Positions 11,378 to 35,580 are shown, counted from the stretch's first letter. The stretch is 64,000 bases of DNA from an archaeon (GCA_038046645.1 JBBSVU010000014.1:1512-65511); one strand, 5' to 3'. Translations and numbers: made by a program. The notes: a model not told the origin generated them from the letters alone.

Positions 11378-11674
11378 ATGGTTGATGAAAAATCGGTAAT
11401 GGATTCACTAAGGAATGTTTATGACCCTGAACTGGGCATAAACATTGTTGACCTTGGTTTTATTTATAAGATCGAAATAAATGAAGGCAGGGTAAATGTA
11501 AGAATGACATTTACAAGCCCACATTGCCCGTTAAGTGGAATGATAACTGACCAGGTAAAAGAAGCGGCCATAAAAGTTAACGGCGTTAAAGAAGTGAATG
11601 TTGAGCTTGTTTTTGATCCTCCTTGGAACCCAAGCATGATGAATTCTGAGATTAGAAAACAATTAGGGGTGTAA
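11378..11674 (+). CDS. DUF59/MIP18-family Fe-S assembly protein (SufT/PaaD-like)
   Basis: LRNVYDPELGINIVDLGFIY...TFTSPHCPLSGMI...DPPWNP. ATG at 11378 inside track ORF 11282. Confidence 0.8.
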   Translation: MVDEKSVMDSLRNVYDPELGINIVDLGFIYKIEINEGRVNVRMTFTSPHCPLSGMITDQVKEAAIKVNGVKEVNVELVFDPPWNPSMMNSEIRKQLGV

Positions 11675-11676
11675 TT

Positions 11677-12057
11677 ATGAATATTGGTTTGGGAATTGGA
11701 ATTATTATTGCGGTGATAATTATTGTAATTTCGGGTTTTGCAGTAATGGAAATGATTAAGCCTAAAGTAAGCAATGAAAAATTAGCTGAATTTGCGAAAT
11801 GCTTAACTGAAAAAGGCGCCAAGATGTATGGTGCTTACTGGTGCATGCACTGCAAAAGCCAAAAAGAAGAATTTGGGGATGCTTTCCAGTACATAAACTA
11901 TGTTGAATGTGATTTAGGCGGAGGAAAAACAGCACAGGAATGCATTGAAAAAGGCATAGATGGCTATCCTAAATGGATAATCAATGAAAAAAAGTATGAT
12001 GGCAAGCAGACCTTCCAGGAATTAGCACAGGCAAGCGGCTGTGAATTAAAACAATAG
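11677..12057 (+). CDS. membrane-anchored thioredoxin-like protein of the VKOR-associated type (CMHC)
   Basis: One N-terminal TM, then GAKMYGAYWCMHCKSQKEEFG...YVEC...GIDGYPKWII...LAQASG. This is the motif set of the Trx-like domain fused to bacterial VKOR homologs. Confidence 0.8.
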   Translation: MNIGLGIGIIIAVIIIVISGFAVMEMIKPKVSNEKLAEFAKCLTEKGAKMYGAYWCMHCKSQKEEFGDAFQYINYVECDLGGGKTAQECIEKGIDGYPKWIINEKKYDGKQTFQELAQASGCELKQ

Positions 12058-12295: not shown

Positions 12296-12343
12296 AAATA
12301 TTTTCCACACTTGCTTGATTAAAATAAAATATAAAAAGAAGAA

Positions 12344-12415
12344 TTACTTCTTCTTTTTCTTGCCTTTCTTTGCTTTTGGCTTCTTTTTAACTTCACCGCA
12401 ACAACAACATGGCAT
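12344..12415 (-). CDS. 23-aa micro-ORF MPCCCCGEVKKKPKAKKGKKKKK (not in the ORF track)
   Basis: ATG at 12415 preceded by GGAGGT with 7-nt spacing. Lies between two co-oriented genes (12525..13190 and 12086..12295). Four consecutive Cys followed by a poly-Lys tail. Confidence 0.4.
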   Translation of the reverse strand: MPCCCCGEVKKKPKAKKGKKKKK

Positions 12416-13244: not shown

Positions 13245-13314
13245 ACAATTTTCTCTTTCTTCTTTGAATAAAATATTTATTCTTTCTCTTTCGCAAAGAG
13301 AAAGAAAAAAGATT
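13245..13314. repeat. degenerate half-copy of the polypurine/polypyrimidine hairpin element, abutting the tRNA-Leu 3' end
   Basis: TTTTCTCTTTCTTCTTTGA...then a 12-bp hairpin TTCTTTCTCTTT-CGC-AAAGAGAAAGAA (13280-13306), 8 nt from the tRNA discriminator base. Confidence 0.45.
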
Positions 13315-13398
13315 TGCAGGAGACAGGATTCGAACCTGCGAAGGCACTAAGCCACCAGATCTTGAGTCTGGTCCCGTTGGCCGCTTGGGTACTCCTGC
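13315..13398 (-). tRNA. tRNA-Leu(CAA), no intron
   Basis: Acceptor GCAGGAG/CTCCTGC, anticodon loop CTCAAGA, long variable arm TGGCTTAGTGCCTTC, T arm GCAGG-TTCGAAT-CCTGT, discriminator A. Confidence 0.95.
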
Positions 13399-13446
13399 AA
13401 TAGATAAAACTGTTAATGGAATTAATTATAAATCTTAGTCTTACCT
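13399..13446 (-). promoter_or_regulatory. ~48-nt promoter-like block directly upstream of tRNA-Leu (copy 1)
   Basis: Minus strand reads AGGTAAGACTAAGATTTATAATTAATTCCATTAACAGTTTTATCTATT, then the tRNA 5' end. Contains the TATA-like GATTTATAA. About 85% identical to 13961-14007. Confidence 0.45.
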
Positions 13447-15499: not shown

Positions 15500-15500
15500 G

Positions 15501-15700
15501 CCAATCCTTTTCTTTTTTAGAAAAAAAGAAAAGTCTTAGGCCTATTCCAAAAGAAAAAACTGAAATAGTTAGCTTTTCTTTTCTTTCTTTTGATATGCTA
15601 CATTTCCAAATAAAATTCCTATGGAATTTTATTGGACCAGTAAAATTCTACGAATTTTACTTGGTTCTTTCTTTTCTTTGCGAAAGAAAAGAAAGAAAAG
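15501..15700 (+). repeat. full-length extragenic copy of the hairpin element (copy C) with two inserted short hairpins
   Basis: CCAATCC-[TTTTCTTTTTTAGAAAAAAAGAAAA]-GTCTTAGG, then CCAAAAGAAAAAAC...TTTTCTTTTCTTTCTTTTGA. Short hairpins at 15608-15633 and 15640-15660. Then CTTTCTTTTCTTT-GCG-AAAGAAAAGAAAG (15667-15695). Confidence 0.7.
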
Positions 15701-15706
15701 GTGCAA

Positions 15707-15924
15707 CGCTGGGGGCGAGATTTGAACTCGCGCGGGCTTGCGCCCAACAGCTAGCTGCCATTTTGTTCTGCCAAAAGAAAAACAGGAACTATTTATTAAT
15801 TATGAATACATTGAATTAAATTAGTTCTCTTTTCTTTTGGCAACCTACATTTTCTTTTCTCTTTTTAAGAGAAAAGAAAAGGCGGTAGCAGGCTGTCGCC
15901 TTAACCGGACTGGGCCACCCCAGC
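15707..15924 (-). tRNA. tRNA-Ser(GCU) with 133-nt intron at the canonical 37/38 position
   Basis: 5' exon 15886-15924, 3' exon 15707-15752. Acceptor GCTGGGG/CCCCAGC, anticodon loop CTGCTA|A, variable arm TGGGCGCAAGCCCGC, T arm GCGAG-TTCAAAT-CTCGC, discriminator G. Loop CUGC pairs with intron-3' GCAG (BHB-like). Confidence 0.9.
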
Positions 15925-21017: not shown

Positions 21018-21241
21018 GGACCCGTAGCTCAGTCTGGAATCAGAGCAATTCCCTCCTAAACCAAGCCTTTTTCTTTTAGGAAAAGAAAAAGGCTAGGCAT
21101 TATCCAAAAAGAAAACTAATAAATTATACTTAAACAGTTCTTTTTCTTTTGGGGTAACCCTAGACCTTTTCTTTTTCTTTTTAAGAAAAAGAAAAGGGTT
21201 GGGCAAGGAAGAGGTCCTGGGTTCGAATCCCAGCGGGTCCG
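21018..21241 (+). tRNA. tRNA-Arg(CCU) with 147-nt intron at the canonical 37/38 position
   Basis: 5' exon 21018-21058, 3' exon 21206-21241. Acceptor GGACCCG/CGGGTCC, D arm GCTC..GAGC, anticodon loop CTCCTA|A, T arm CTGGG-TTCGAAT-CCCAG, discriminator G. One A.G mismatch at 27:43. Confidence 0.9.
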
Positions 21242-21302: not shown

Positions 21303-22736
21303 ATGCTAATAAAACGCTCTTTGCCAATAGTACTTTTCATAAATTTATTCTACTTAATCTGGGTTTTTCCTTACCTTAATGGGATAGCCGGCATTATTTT
21401 TTATGTTGCAGAATTAGGGTTTTTCTCATTGCTTCTCGTTTTCGGCTTCTGCCATTGGGAAGGCAAACATGTATTTGAAACAGGCATTAAAGCAAAGGGA
21501 ACTGTTGATGTTTTTATTACCTGCTTAAATGAGCCTGTTGCAATGATTGAAAAAACACTGAAAGCCTCTGTCAATATAGATTATGGCCATAAGAAAGTGT
21601 TTTTGTTGGATGATGGAAACAGAAATGAACTTAAAAAACTGGCTGAAAAATATGCAGCAATTTATTTGGCAAGGGAAAGGCACATTAATGAAAAAGCAGG
21701 CAACCTTAACAACGGATTAATGAACAGCGATTCTGAATTTATTTTTACGCTTGATGCTGACCAGGTTCCTGACAAAGAGGTTCTTAAAAAAACACTAGGT
21801 TATTTTACAAAGAGCGAAAAAATTGCTTTTGTTACAACCAGGCAAAGATTTGATGTGCACAAGCAAGACTTTAACAAAGACCATATGTTCTATGAACATA
21901 TGCAAACAGGAAAAAATGCAGATGCTTGTTCAATAAGCTGCGGCAGCGGGGTTATTTACAGGAGAAGTGCCTTGGAGAAAATAGGCGGCTTTAAAACATG
22001 GAACCTTGTAGAGGATGTGTATACGTCATTTGAACTGCACAGGCATGGATTTACCAGCCTTTACATAAACAAGGCATATACGACAGGGCTGGCGCCACAA
22101 GACCTGAAAAATATATACAAACAAAGGGGCACTTGGGCTGTTGATTCATTAAGGCTTCTTTTCAAGAAAAATCCTTTATTTGCAAAAGGGCTGTCTTTCA
22201 ACCAGAGGATACACTATTTTGAAATAGGTTACATATATTTGGTAGCGGGGGTATTTTTTCCAATTCTTTTTTGCCTGCCGATTGTTTCATTATTGACAAA
22301 TGTACCGCTACTTTTTGTTGGCGTAGAATTTATATTCATAAGATTGTTAGGCCTGCTTTCAATTGTCTGGTTTTACTCAAGGCTTAATGAAGGTAGCGAA
22401 GGGACAAGGTTTTGGACAGGATTATGGCCGATATTTTCCACAGCAGCCCTTTTGGCAGCAGTACCGGGAAAAATCAAATATAGGGTTACCAGCAAGGCTG
22501 AAACAAGCAAAAGACGGATTAAATTAATTCTGCCGCAACTTACTATTTTGAGTTTAGGAATAATCTCGATATACTTTAATGTTTATGCATATGGCCTAAG
22601 CAATAATACGCTAGCAAATTCTTTATGGGTATTTGTTGTTGCCTGGTGGATGTGGCCTGTGATTGTAAAGGGTTTTTCCTCTAAATTTATTCATACCCCA
22701 ACCTTGCATACACAGATTGAGGGGGAATACACTTAA
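21303..22736 (+). CDS. processive family-2 glycosyltransferase (cellulose/chitin-synthase-like)
   Basis: Cytoplasmic GT2 domain between TM bundles, with LDDGN, LDADQVP, EDVYTS and the QRGTWA (QxxRW-type) motif. Confidence 0.85.
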   Translation: MLIKRSLPIVLFINLFYLIWVFPYLNGIAGIIFYVAELGFFSLLLVFGFCHWEGKHVFETGIKAKGTVDVFITCLNEPVAMIEKTLKASVNIDYGHKKVFLLDDGNRNELKKLAEKYAAIYLARERHINEKAGNLNNGLMNSDSEFIFTLDADQVPDKEVLKKTLGYFTKSEKIAFVTTRQRFDVHKQDFNKDHMFYEHMQTGKNADACSISCGSGVIYRRSALEKIGGFKTWNLVEDVYTSFELHRHGFTSLYINKAYTTGLAPQDLKNIYKQRGTWAVDSLRLLFKKNPLFAKGLSFNQRIHYFEIGYIYLVAGVFFPILFCLPIVSLLTNVPLLFVGVEFIFIRLLGLLSIVWFYSRLNEGSEGTRFWTGLWPIFSTAALLAAVPGKIKYRVTSKAETSKRRIKLILPQLTILSLGIISIYFNVYAYGLSNNTLANSLWVFVVAWWMWPVIVKGFSSKFIHTPTLHTQIEGEYT

Positions 22737-22916
22737 TAAAGTTAAAACAGTTAAGTTAGAGATTAATAAGCAATTACTAAATTGAAGCATATTCTTGAAA
22801 AATGCTGCTTAGCAAAATCCTTTATTTAACAGCATTGGGATTCTGCTTTAGGCAATTTGCGGCAAAGTCTAACGCATGCTTTGTGCGCTTGAATCGGTGT
22901 TCTTTAGGTATCGGAT

Positions 22917-30430: not shown

Positions 30431-30600
30431 GTGACATCCTCCACACTGTGGCTTCCTAATTCATTGGCTGCTTAATAGCAGCCTCCAAAGGCATACAGGT
30501 CTTGTCCAGACCCAATTTTAATATATTCAATGCTGCATTGTAGTCCCTATCTATTTCAAGGCCACATGCACATTTATGTATTCTTTCATATAATGGTTTT
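30431..30600 (-). ncRNA. putative TnpB omega/reRNA region (position inferred)
   Basis: Established knowledge: TnpB guide RNAs overlap the tnpB 3' end and terminate at the IS right end. Here the RE boundary is only 25 nt past the stop codon. No structure was verified. Confidence 0.3.
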
Positions 30601-31589
30601 TTAACTATTGTTCCGCACTTGTAACACTTGCTTGTTGTGTCCCTTGGGTTTACTTTTACAAATGAAATACCAGCGCTCTCAGCCTTGTACTTTAGCATTT
30701 GTAGAAAGTTACTCCAAGAAGCATCCATTATGTTTCTTGCTGTGTACGATTCTTTTATTATATTTCTCACATCAAGGTCTTCTGCAGCTACAAAATCATA
30801 GTTGTTTACATATTTTCTAGATAGCTTATGCAGGAAATCATTCCTTTGGTTGCAGATTGTTTCATGCACGTTAGCTACTTTTATTTTTTGCTTTGTTCTG
30901 TTGTTTGAGCCTTTCTTCTTTTTGAAAAGTTTTCTCTGCTCTGTTGCTAACCTTTTCAGTGATTTATTAAGAAACATGGGATGATCAATATGATTGCCAT
31001 CGGAGTCATAAATGAAGTTTATTGTTCCTAAGTCAAGGCCTATTGATTTGTTTGTCTTTACTCTTGGTTTTTCTTTCATGTTATGGATGCATAATAAAGC
31101 AAACCATTTTCCTGAACATTCTTTTTTTATCTGCACCTGTTTTATTTCTCCATTTATTATTCTGTGGGTTCTTATGGAAAGAGAACCTATCTTTGACAAA
31201 TGTAGTTTGTTATATTTCTTATTTTTTATTTCAAGAACAAAGCCTGACTGGTTATAGGTAAAGGTTTTGAACCAGTCTTTTCCTTTGAATCTCAAACAAC
31301 CTATGTTCTTTCCATTTTTCTTTAGCCTTGACAATGCCCTTAGGTTTGAGAATAATCTGTAACATTCATACTGCAGTGTTTTGGAATATATTTCATTCAG
31401 TTCTGGATATTGTTCTTTTAGCTTAGGTATTGCTGCTTGTATTTCTGATTGGTTTATTTCTTTTTGTTTGTTTAATATTTCAAGCAGTTTGTTGTATGTA
31501 AAACGGCATTTATCCAGAACAAAAAACAGTTTTTGTTCTTGTTCCTTTGATGGATACATCCTGAATTTGTATGTAAGCAGCATGAACAA
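30456..31589 (-). CDS. tnpB: TnpB (IS200/IS605 OrfB) RNA-guided endonuclease, catalytic residues intact
   Basis: N-terminus LLTYKFRMYPSKEQEQKL; RuvC-I GLDLGTINF; RuvC-II FVAAEDLDV; Zn finger CYKCG...HKCACG; RuvC-III DRDYNAALNI. Confidence 0.9.
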   Translation of the reverse strand: MFMLLTYKFRMYPSKEQEQKLFFVLDKCRFTYNKLLEILNKQKEINQSEIQAAIPKLKEQYPELNEIYSKTLQYECYRLFSNLRALSRLKKNGKNIGCLRFKGKDWFKTFTYNQSGFVLEIKNKKYNKLHLSKIGSLSIRTHRIINGEIKQVQIKKECSGKWFALLCIHNMKEKPRVKTNKSIGLDLGTINFIYDSDGNHIDHPMFLNKSLKRLATEQRKLFKKKKGSNNRTKQKIKVANVHETICNQRNDFLHKLSRKYVNNYDFVAAEDLDVRNIIKESYTARNIMDASWSNFLQMLKYKAESAGISFVKVNPRDTTSKCYKCGTIVKKPLYERIHKCACGLEIDRDYNAALNILKLGLDKTCMPLEAAIKQPMN

Positions 31590-31716
31590 ATAAAAGCTTT
31601 TTGGGCTTTATAAAGGATTGGAGAGAGTAGATTTCCTGTGAACTCTACTCGCTTTCATCTACATCTTGAAAGATGCAGATTTCCCGCTCACACGGTTAAA
31701 AAGCCTTCTTCCCACC

Positions 31717-31791
31717 TTCTCTTTTCTTTCTTTTCTTTGGGATAAACCCTAGACTTTTCTTTTCTTTCGCAAAGAAAAGAAAAGGCTTGGG
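31717..31791 (+). repeat. half-copy (arm' + hairpin) of the hairpin element (copy D)
   Basis: TTCTCTTTTCTTTCTTTTCTTTGG-GATAAACCCTAGAC-[TTTTCTTTTCTTT-CGC-AAAGAAAAGAAAA]-GGCTTGGG. Collinear with the 3' third of the tRNA-Arg intron. Confidence 0.65.
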
Positions 31792-31861: not shown

Positions 31862-32242
31862 ATGACTATGTTCATAGAATTTCTATATAGTATTATGACC
31901 CTGAATATTGGCTGGTTTGTGGAATTGTTTGCAAATAATATACTTCTGGCAGTTATGGTTCTCACTGCATTTGCAATATTCTACCAATTCAAGATGAAGA
32001 ACGCCATATTTGCCACTGCCCTTATTTTTATACAAATATGGGTAATTGATGAAACATTAAGCATGCTTGGCGCAGTTATGTTTGTCGGAAGCTTCCTGCT
32101 CATATACTATATCTGTAAGATGGGGGTATGGATTGCTGCAGATGAAGACCCAAAATTAAAAAAGCATTTAATTCCGATAAATGAAGCTGCATGGATGATT
32201 CCTTTGCTTGTATACAACCTGTTCAGGATGGGGATAATATGA
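31862..32242 (+). CDS. small polytopic membrane protein (about 4 TM), unknown function
   Basis: 126-aa hydrophobic ORF. Its stop overlaps the next start (ATGA at 32239-32242). Confidence 0.5.
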   Translation: MTMFIEFLYSIMTLNIGWFVELFANNILLAVMVLTAFAIFYQFKMKNAIFATALIFIQIWVIDETLSMLGAVMFVGSFLLIYYICKMGVWIAADEDPKLKKHLIPINEAAWMIPLLVYNLFRMGII

Positions 32243-34633: not shown

Positions 34634-35347
34634 ATGCTTGAGAAATTACCTTCAACAATTGCTGGTGAAATATCACTAAGCAAAGACCCTGGAGGCAGCA
34701 TAAAGAAATGGAGAGAAATCTTTAGCATCACCCAGACTGATTTGGCCAAAGAATTGAAGATAAGCCCTTCAACAATAAGCGATTATGAGGGGGGGAGAAG
34801 AAAGAACCCTGGCATCAATGTAGTAAGCAGATTTGTAAATACAATTATCGAGATTGATAGAAAAAGGGGCGGCAAGATAATTAAACAGTTAGAAAAAGAT
34901 TTTGAGCCAAGCTTTGATGCATTTGAAATACATGAATTTTTAAAAGCTTTAAAAGGGGCTGATTTCCTGCAACTTATTAATGGAATTTGCTTGGCAAATG
35001 AATCTAAACTGCAGGAAATAAACATTTATGGATATACAATAATTGACTCATTAAAAGTAATCATAAAAGTGCCTGTGCATGAGTATATGCATCTTTACGG
35101 AAAAACACCGGAAAGAGCCTTAATATTTGAGCAGGTTGAAACCGGAAGAAGCCCGCTAATTGCGGTAAAAATCAGCAAGTTTAGCACAAACATGAATCCT
35201 GCAATTATTGTATTGCACACTCCGAAAAAGCCGGAAGAGATAGATGCTGTTGCAATAAAAATTGCTGAAAGCGAAAAAATTCCTTTAATCATAACTGCAA
35301 AACCTCTTGCGGACATTGTCAAGGACTTGCAGAAATTCGAAACATAA
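34634..35347 (+). CDS. XRE-family HTH regulator with C-terminal uncharacterised domain (archaeal COG1395-like)
   Basis: FSITQTDLAKELKISPSTISDYEGGRRKNPG HTH_3 motif, followed by a ~160-aa C-terminal domain. Confidence 0.75.
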   Translation: MLEKLPSTIAGEISLSKDPGGSIKKWREIFSITQTDLAKELKISPSTISDYEGGRRKNPGINVVSRFVNTIIEIDRKRGGKIIKQLEKDFEPSFDAFEIHEFLKALKGADFLQLINGICLANESKLQEINIYGYTIIDSLKVIIKVPVHEYMHLYGKTPERALIFEQVETGRSPLIAVKISKFSTNMNPAIIVLHTPKKPEEIDAVAIKIAESEKIPLIITAKPLADIVKDLQKFET

Positions 35348-35528
35348 CCAAGCCTTTCTTTTCCATTTCAAGCGAAGCTTGAAAGGACCTATAAAACCTA
35401 AGGTTTTATGTGGTCTTTGCGAAAGAAAAGAAAGTCTAGGTATTACAAGTAAAATTCTATTGGAATTTTACTGTACACTAAAATCCTTTGGATTTTAGTC
35501 GTATCCAAAGAAAAGAAACTATTTTTTT
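35348..35528 (+). mobile_element. 181-nt hairpin-element copy (copy E) flanked by a perfect 16-bp direct repeat
   Basis: GAAATTCGAAACATAA occurs at 35332-35347 and 35529-35544. The element is CCAAGCC-hairpin-GTCTAGG-TATTA..TATCC-AAAGAAAAGAAAC, with four inserted short hairpins (35366-35384, 35391-35409, 35449-35471, 35477-35499). Confidence 0.7.
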
Positions 35529-35580
35529 GAAATTCGAAACATAAATAAGAATATTGCACTAATGATAGGTAAGGGAAAGC

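Follow-up and report, generated by a model that had tools for sequence, protein, structure and literature searches.

A dispersed palindromic repeat in the introns and flanks of tRNA genes of DPANN archaea

The tRNA-Arg(CCU) gene analyzed here raises the question of why its large intron resembles that of a second tRNA gene of different identity, tRNA-Ser(GCU), which is encoded on the opposite strand. In the present case, the shared intron sequence could be traced to a defined repeat unit. Both genes lie in a 64,000-nt stretch of archaeal DNA (GCA_038046645.1 JBBSVU010000014.1:1512-65511), hereafter called the window, which has a G+C content of 36% and encodes a topoisomerase VI B subunit, an archaeal GlyRS and an aCPSF1-like nuclease. 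The closest GTDB genome is that of the DPANN archaeon 'Candidatus Diapherotrites archaeon CG08_land_8_20_14_0_20_34_12', and its contig L005 is syntenic to the window from 10.7 to 26.4 kb.

Searched without introns, ARAGORN and Rfam revealed only tRNA-Leu(CAA) and tRNA-Thr(CGU) in the window. When introns were allowed, ARAGORN called tRNA-Ser(GCU) directly, with a 133-nt intron at 15753-15885, but tRNA-Arg(CCU) was missed even under this setting, and by Rfam as well. After joining, the two Arg exons gave a 77-nt tRNA-Arg(CCU) that was accepted by ARAGORN and whose sole flaw was A27.G43. The first-pass annotation had placed a 147-nt intron at 21059-21205 of this gene, and its coordinates were correct; the intron lies at the canonical position 37/38. 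At the Arg 3' end, the sequence GTTGGGC matches the integron attC-like motif GTTRRRY. For the ORF upstream of the gene, the protein collection yielded no more than two homologues. Directly 3' of tRNA-Arg, a family-2 glycosyltransferase gene (21303-22736) is located, which is missing from the syntenic contig L005. Homology between the two sequences restarts at about position 22900 of the window, i.e. a gene-sized indel adjoins the tRNA-Arg gene.

The same module order had been ascribed to the Arg and Ser introns, with the caveat that low-complexity tracts may inflate their similarity. The two introns are indeed collinear, positions 10-94 of the Arg intron aligning with positions 10-115 of the Ser intron. 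The local alignment score was 42, compared to 20.7 +/- 3.5 for 1000 dinucleotide shuffles (z 6.1), none of which scored as high, indicating real homology and not low complexity. With the first hairpin removed, the central module alone gave a z of 7.0. Stems of the sequence CCAAAAGAAAA/TTTTCTTTTGG are found in the centre of both introns (15769-15842 in Ser, 21104-21152 in Arg), and both pre-tRNAs folded far better than shuffled sequences (z -6.6 and -8.7). What did not hold is the notion of one large structured intron common to two tRNAs. They share instead a palindromic unit of about 60 nt, which is not specific to introns.

This unit, termed U, consists of CCAAGCC, a perfect 12-15-bp hairpin (H1) whose 5' arm consists only of pyrimidines and whose 3' arm only of purines, GKCTAGG, a linker of 4-6 nt and CCAAAAAGAAAAC. 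Its outer stem contains a conserved A x A mismatch. The full element is made up of U, an AU-rich loop and the reverse complement of U and thus forms a long inverted repeat, in which the 'central hairpin' represents the paired inner ends of the two units. The layout of the Arg intron is AA, U, AU-rich loop, reverse-complement U and GCA. Its 5' unit has a perfect 14-bp H1 at 21064-21094 and CCAAAAAGAAAAC at 21104-21116, its 3' unit a perfect 15-bp H1 at 21165-21197 framed by CCCTAGACC/GGGTTGGG. These two hairpins and their counterpart in the Ser intron had been named earlier, and all three exist and are perfect. The Ser intron possesses one U followed by the central hairpin; it has no inverted 3' unit, and its 3' tail is not derived from the element.

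From an alignment of 14 units, a covariance model (R1) was built. In the window and related loci it yielded 22 matches with E<1e-6, all at loci of the family, compared to a best E of 0.03 on ten unrelated control contigs. At both ends of the Arg, Ser(GGA) and Ser(UGA) introns, R1 placed U and inverted U on opposite strands. The 64-kb window contains seven units U, which have no coding capacity. It also contains 22 perfect hairpins of at least 9 bp, compared to about 2.4 in shuffles, most of them belonging to two sequence families. Outside the introns, modules were detected at 15665-15697 and at the other extra-intronic positions of Table 1 (behind tRNA-Leu, at the end of the Ser trailer array, isolated and intergenic). 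Since copies of U exist outside introns, the similarity of the Arg and Ser introns is not an intron-specific one; it stems from a single dispersed hairpin repeat of which both introns are composed.

Table 1. Positions of the two intron-bearing tRNA genes and of the repeat copies in the window
Feature	Position	Strand	Evidence or remark
Weak U with H1 hairpin (13280-13306), immediately 3' of tRNA-Leu(CAA)	13250-13316	-	R1, E 3e-4
Hairpin array	15500-15706	-	Fills the gap from the tRNA-Ser 3' end to the carbamate kinase start codon
Inverted U, end of Ser trailer array	15501-15562	+	R1
tRNA-Ser(GCU)	15707-15924	-	ARAGORN -i; exon 1 15886-15924, exon 2 15707-15752
Unit U, 5' end of Ser intron; H1 15850-15880 (14 bp)	15824-15886	-	R1, 60.7 bits, E 2.7e-10
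tRNA-Arg(CCU) exon 1, positions 1-37	21018-21058	+	100% identical in L005
tRNA-Arg intron, 147 nt, 37/38	21059-21205	+	137/147 identical to L005
Unit U, 5' copy, Arg intron	21061-21120	+	R1, 71.3 bits, E 1.5e-12
Arg central hairpin CCAAAAAGAAAA...TTTTTCTTTTGG, AU-rich loop	21104-21152	+	Inner ends of two units
Unit U, inverted 3' copy, Arg intron	21137-21202	-	R1, 77.1 bits, E 8e-14
tRNA-Arg(CCU) exon 2	21206-21241	+	Joined-exon tRNA; compared with L005
Isolated U	31725-31790	-	R1, 80.5 bits, E 1.5e-14
Intergenic copy	35348-35530	+	R1 match 35348-35459, E 5.5e-5

The array behind tRNA-Ser comprises an H1 (15665-15697), two AGTAAAATTC-type hairpins (15639-15661 and 15609-15633) and a central hairpin together with the inverted U. 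The isolated unit lies immediately beyond the left end of a tnpB insertion sequence and upstream of ORF 31862-32242, at a distance of 71 nt. The intergenic copy begins directly after the stop codon of ORF 34634-35347 and consists of U with nested hairpins and a two-hairpin module. It is flanked by a 16-nt direct repeat (GAAATTCGAAACATAA; 35332-35347 and 35531-35546), which includes the stop codon. On contig L075, an imperfect direct repeat of about 46 nt borders one unit. In both cases, the flanks are long and duplication-like. Two short-read Logan contigs of the same strain as the window (L095, L096) terminate within the repeat, 37 nt beyond the ORF end at 35347, so the family breaks assemblies. 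A search for an empty site corresponding to the 35348 copy gave only contigs of this strain or contigs interrupted within the repeat. Another hairpin, with purine and pyrimidine arms (12333-12358, minus strand), forms the end of a tiny ORF (MPCCCCGEVKKKPKAKKGKKKKK, 12330-12405); it represents coding sequence together with a terminator and does not belong to the family.

Beyond the window, a single exact-pattern scan of metagenome contigs gave 30 stretches, about half of which are true family members. At least five tRNA genes that differ in identity (Arg-CCU, Ser-GCU, Ser-GGA, Ser-UGA and Cys-GCA) were found to have introns built from U. The tRNA-Ser(GGA) (L073/L085) and tRNA-Ser(UGA) (L066) genes have introns of 153-154 nt at 37/38 with the order U, loop, inverted U. 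The tRNA-Cys(GCA) gene of L077 is divided into three exons by introns of 126 nt (37/38) and 98 nt (T arm), each of which starts with U; its joined exons were accepted by ARAGORN, though the chosen junction leaves a T loop of 6 nt. Removal of the inserts restored a complete cloverleaf tRNA on L066, L073 and L077. At 37/38, the five introns range from 126 to 239 nt. Not all introns are of this kind: other tRNAs of the same genome as the window have plain short ones (Leu-GAG, 18 nt, L099; Cys, 27 nt, L101).

Apart from introns, U was detected 0-6 nt past the 3' end of tRNA-Leu (L078), tRNA-Cys (L088), tRNA-Ala (L092) and tRNA-Ser (L066), in addition to the trailers of tRNA-Ser and tRNA-Leu in the window. 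Inverted U abuts the 5' end of tRNA-Cys (L101, the same genome as the window, 9 kb beyond it), tRNA-Ser (L066) and tRNA-Thr (L064), and copies directly 3' of ORF stops are present at 35348 in the window and on L091. Thus, the copies occupy the discarded parts of transcripts, i.e. introns, trailers and leaders, as well as DNA directly after stop codons. In introns, U follows the 5' splice site and inverted U precedes the 3' splice site. The cluster names assign L077 and L075 to Micrarchaeota and L085 to Diapherotrites; hence, the family spans two DPANN phyla.

Intron-bearing tRNA-Ser genes were labelled Pro or Thr by ARAGORN (L066, L073, L085, L005/L086; the first three as Pro), and the three-exon tRNA-Cys of L077 was missed, like tRNA-Arg(CCU). 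Automated tRNA counts for such MAGs are consequently too low and the tRNA complements look incomplete. A permissive Rfam 15 scan of the whole window (E<=1) returned only the two intron-less tRNAs and no match to the family, and the unit pattern gave 0 matches in viral contigs. A blastn search with the Arg intron against phages and plasmids likewise gave nothing, but its low-complexity filter may mask matches. Read by eye, the introns have no C/D boxes. On L075 (minus strand), C-box-like (ATGATGA) and D-box-like (CTGA) motifs are present within about 100 nt on each side of the unit at 1934-1993, which suggests a putative cluster of C/D box sRNA genes beside the repeat.

The exon-intron junctions of the two genes were examined for a bulge-helix-bulge (BHB, 3-4-3) motif. 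Pairing by hand predicted for Ser a central helix of four perfect base pairs (CUGC/GCAG) with a 3-nt bulge on either side. The helix predicted for Arg consists of C-G, U.G and C-G plus a C x U mismatch, with the bulges UA|A and CA|A, and the inner helix ACC/GGU is formed by the element ends. Folds constrained to the BHB were 4.4 kcal/mol (Ser, -84.8 vs -89.2) and 9.4 kcal/mol (Arg, -74.1 vs -83.5) above the minimum free energy. It is therefore plausible that the modelled junctions represent a relaxed BHB motif, which is imperfect and not the predicted minimum. Relaxed BHB motifs are cleaved by the epsilon2 endonuclease of Micrarchaeota (PMC3239211). Excision of the introns and ligation of the exons would be in keeping with the conservation of the exons across relatives. 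That T-rich tracts in the introns would terminate transcription was considered and dismissed: runs of five or more T occur 2.4 times per kb on the sense strand of ORFs, so a T-rich intron need not be a terminator.

Between close relatives, whole modules are present or absent. The Arg intron of L005 is 59 nt longer than that of the window owing to two AGTAAAATTC-type hairpins, each bounded by TA, between H1 and CCAAAAAG. This two-hairpin module recurs, junctions included, in the intergenic copy of the window (35436-35505), and L077 has two other hairpins at the equivalent spot. The Ser intron measures 133 nt in the window and on L098; its ortholog in the closest relative (L005) is remodelled: it is 239 nt long, its alignable portion shows 60% identity, and the arms of its first hairpin match in sequence those of the Arg 3' hairpin. 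An unrelated intron in the orthologous tRNA of a relative, a finding that would speak against a shared source, was not encountered for Arg and only in part for Ser. The 207-nt Ser trailer array is identical to that of L005 at 199 positions, most changes falling into loops, whereas L098 lacks it and has an unrelated 80-nt spacer instead. A carbamate kinase relative on L097 (70% identity) is not syntenic. The leader unit of tRNA-Thr is present on L064 and absent from the window. Mosaic arrays of palindromes at gene ends were seen at 15500-15706, 35348-35530 and L005 11695-11826.

L005 shows further peculiarities at tRNA-Leu(CAA). A 36-nt intron, placed non-canonically within the anticodon stem, interrupts the gene (11512-11633); this intron is unrelated to the hairpin family and absent from the window ortholog (13314-13399). 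Behind the gene, about 100 nt are inserted (11634-11760). A 19-nt duplication of the tRNA 3' end (GAATCCTGTCCCGTGCAAA) borders this insert, which resembles what an integrated element would leave behind.

On the other hand, orthologous copies are strongly conserved. Identity between the window and L005 is 77.5% in genes and 52% at 836 fourfold sites, the tRNA-Ser exon 2 differs at 7 of 46 positions, and the flanks of the Arg gene are unalignable. Yet none of the 10 changes in the Arg intron affects a stem: three constitute the flip of a hairpin loop, two lie in linkers and the remaining five, all those of the central region, within the loop of its hairpin. These invariant stems indicate that the copies do not drift neutrally. 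As neutral drift of a selfish element fails to explain them, some selective constraint or function is likely. Across paralogous copies, 99.2% of the H1 cells were paired and two-sided changes were observed at 7 of 11 pairs, compared to 0-1 in slid controls, figures that flatter the structure because the alignment had been fitted to the model. Only 2 of 240 cells were G.U. In a pyrimidine/purine helix every transition produces a G.U pair, and their scarcity suggests that H1 is a Watson-Crick palindrome at the DNA level rather than an RNA helix. The family is odd in itself, its stems being frozen while neutral sites are saturated and its hairpin side pointing always to the end of a gene or exon.

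The reading preferred here, to which we assign a probability of roughly 0.6, is that a REP/MITE-like modular palindromic repeat of DPANN archaea builds both introns, resides in the discarded parts of pre-tRNAs and leaves them by relaxed BHB splicing. At the DNA level, copies would be gained, lost, nested and exchanged between sites by transposition or recombination. The preservation of the stems as palindromes with strict Watson-Crick pairing makes hairpinned DNA the probable substrate of this process. In the pre-tRNA, each hairpin would fold locally and the outer ends of the element would pair (ACC/GGU in Arg), while the GGG at the 3' end of the element may pair with C32-U33-C34 of the anticodon loop to give the relaxed BHB. 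The latter could be cut by a splicing endonuclease of broad specificity, and the exons joined by RtcB-type ligation. Earlier, intron transposition or gain from a common mobile source had been proposed. The common, repeated source stands and is probably mobile, but it does not move as an intron. Taken together, the data suggest that the family is both mobile and used by the cell. Such a repeat would provide a concrete DNA source for tRNA intron gain in archaea, and since the unit exists outside introns, varies between relatives and is present in two DPANN phyla, this source can be studied directly.

A more far-reaching, tentative version concerns the insertion itself. All but 2-5 nt of the introns of Arg and Ser(GGA/UGA) belong to the element. 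As these introns are nearly all element, insertion at 37/38 may itself have created them. The repeat might then be an archaeal counterpart of introners, whose ends (ACC...GGU and the terminal GGG) provide most of the BHB so that insertion results in an instantly spliceable intron; the terminal GGG would pair with C32-U33 of any anticodon loop. We regard this as possible but doubtful. If true, it would be the first concrete DNA-level mechanism of archaeal tRNA intron gain. No autonomous element with the same ends and no transposase was found in the window, where the neighbouring tnpB is unrelated, ten small ORFs have no Y1 transposase domain and the larger ORFs are housekeeping genes. Nor was there a consistent target-site duplication at the intron copies: AA is a possible duplication at Arg and Ser(GGA), and none was seen at Cys (L077). 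Direct repeats flanking other copies vary, TA bordering the two-hairpin module and 16 nt the intergenic copy, without a single rule.

It is conceivable, albeit rather unlikely, that U serves chiefly as a functional module flanking pre-tRNAs and genes and is maintained by purifying selection, its multiplicity reflecting reuse and not selfish spread. As a strongly self-folding clamp, it could sit beside the sites of RNase P, RNase Z and the splicing endonuclease, where it would insulate the folding of the tRNA, stabilise 3' ends or aid termination. The strict orientation of the copies fits this idea, the H1 side always facing the exon or gene end. All six trailer copies are 0-6 nt away from the tRNA and have its orientation, and the three leaders are inverse. 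Also consistent with it are the stems of orthologous copies, invariant next to fourfold sites of 52% identity, the restriction of substitutions to loops and linkers, and a nearly identical sequence across two phyla and contigs of 32-50% G+C. However, many tRNAs of the same genomes (tRNA-Thr of the window, tRNA-Leu(GAG) of L099) as well as the trailer of tRNA-Arg do without U, while whole arrays are gained or missing between close relatives. The near absence of G.U pairs argues against a helix acting purely at the RNA level, and there is no match in Rfam.

The positions of U behind gene ends and of inverted U ahead of gene starts, reminiscent of a trailer plus a leader, permit another, improbable reading, in which the full element is a portable terminator-promoter cassette and tRNA-Arg a split tRNA in situ. 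Exon 1 would end in U, exon 2 would start from a TATA-like site in the AU-rich loop, and the tails with U and inverted U would anneal in trans to form the BHB, by analogy with Nanoarchaeum. The ends of the element are complementary, and the AU-rich loops of the intron copies do contain TATA-like strings. Nevertheless, the central loop of the Ser trailer array has only 14 nt and no such string, T5 runs are so frequent inside ORFs that they are not strong terminators here, and on L064 a promoter-like TATA lies upstream of the leader unit, which is hence transcribed through.

Still less probable is a descent of the hairpins from the subterminal palindromes of IS200/IS605 elements, the repeats being PATE-like and mobilised with the tnpB element at 30456-31589. 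The ends of these insertion sequences are imperfect hairpins with mismatched bases, which recalls the A x A mismatch in the outer stem of U, and the TnpB gene (NCBIfam E 9e-82) is about 140 nt from the copy at 31725-31790. This gene for an IS200/IS605-type RNA-guided nuclease is on the minus strand, the left end of the element being near 31693. Two more tnpB copies, with proteins 91% and 88% identical, are located on contigs of GCA_964358865.1, and all three copies share about 115 nt upstream that begin at TTAACCGTGTGAGC, the left end of the element. They have sequence in common only from TTAACCGTGTGAGC inward and U lies outside; the other two copies have unrelated flanks, R1 gave no U in 32 kb around them, and there is no hairpin at the opposite end of the tnpB gene. 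An IS200/IS605 origin was rejected, as U lies beyond the shared boundary and is absent near the other tnpB copies. Finally, the negligible chance that low-complexity pyrimidine/purine tracts match accidentally, to which the composition of the tracts and short matches to them scattered in the window at chance level might point, was ruled out by the shuffles and control searches, since CCAAGCC, GKCTAGG and CCAAAAAGAAAAC recur in this order in 22 copies with clean controls and the unit pattern gave three matches in the window versus 0 expected.

Related phenomena are known from other organisms. In Thermoproteales, near-identical introns in unrelated tRNAs imply that introns were recently acquired from one shared source (Fujishima et al. 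2010, summarised in PMC4090602); they are removed via the BHB by a broad-specificity endonuclease (PMC4090602). This review calls the mechanism of their transposition unknown and reports no copies outside introns. The family described here is similar in that highly similar introns occur in tRNAs of different identity and, for tRNA-Cys of L077, at a non-canonical position. It differs by its DPANN hosts, much longer introns, a palindromic unit and the abundance of this unit outside introns.

With REP/BIME sequences, which are short imperfect extragenic palindromes at gene ends forming mosaics of fixed relative orientation, maintained as hairpins in the DNA and in part recruited as terminators or stabilisers, the U family shares its extragenic position at the ends of genes and its imperfect palindromes, which are likewise combined in mosaic arrays. 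However, it is archaeal and unrelated in sequence, and the ten small ORFs of the window do not include a RAYT-type Y1 transposase. To our knowledge, REPs do not occur as spliced tRNA introns. Gene-inserting MITEs such as the Rickettsia palindromic elements and Correia are non-coding, have terminal inverted repeats and many copies, vary in presence between relatives, insert into each other and are tolerated inside functional genes. Terminal inverted repeats, lack of coding capacity, dispersed copies and presence/absence polymorphism between relatives are also properties of the U family, but short target duplications are not consistent at its tRNA sites, and the window revealed no autonomous partner. 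Moreover, the interrupted tRNA gene would be rescued by RNA splicing and not by in-frame tolerance.

A like concept is that of eukaryotic introners and the IStrons of Clostridia, mobile DNA that is spliced out of the host transcript so that insertion makes an intron. Here, a protein-only BHB endonuclease and a ligase would take the place of the spliceosome or group I ribozyme, and the makeup of the introns suggests that insertion may have created them. In the split tRNAs of Nanoarchaeum equitans, complementary sequences after the 5' half and before the 3' half form the BHB. This is also a DPANN archaeon, and its arrangement is mirrored by the U behind exon 1 and the inverted U ahead of exon 2. 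Unlike in Nanoarchaeum, the tRNA halves are contiguous. If the introner reading is true, the layout of U and inverted U is just the arrangement needed for split tRNAs to evolve.
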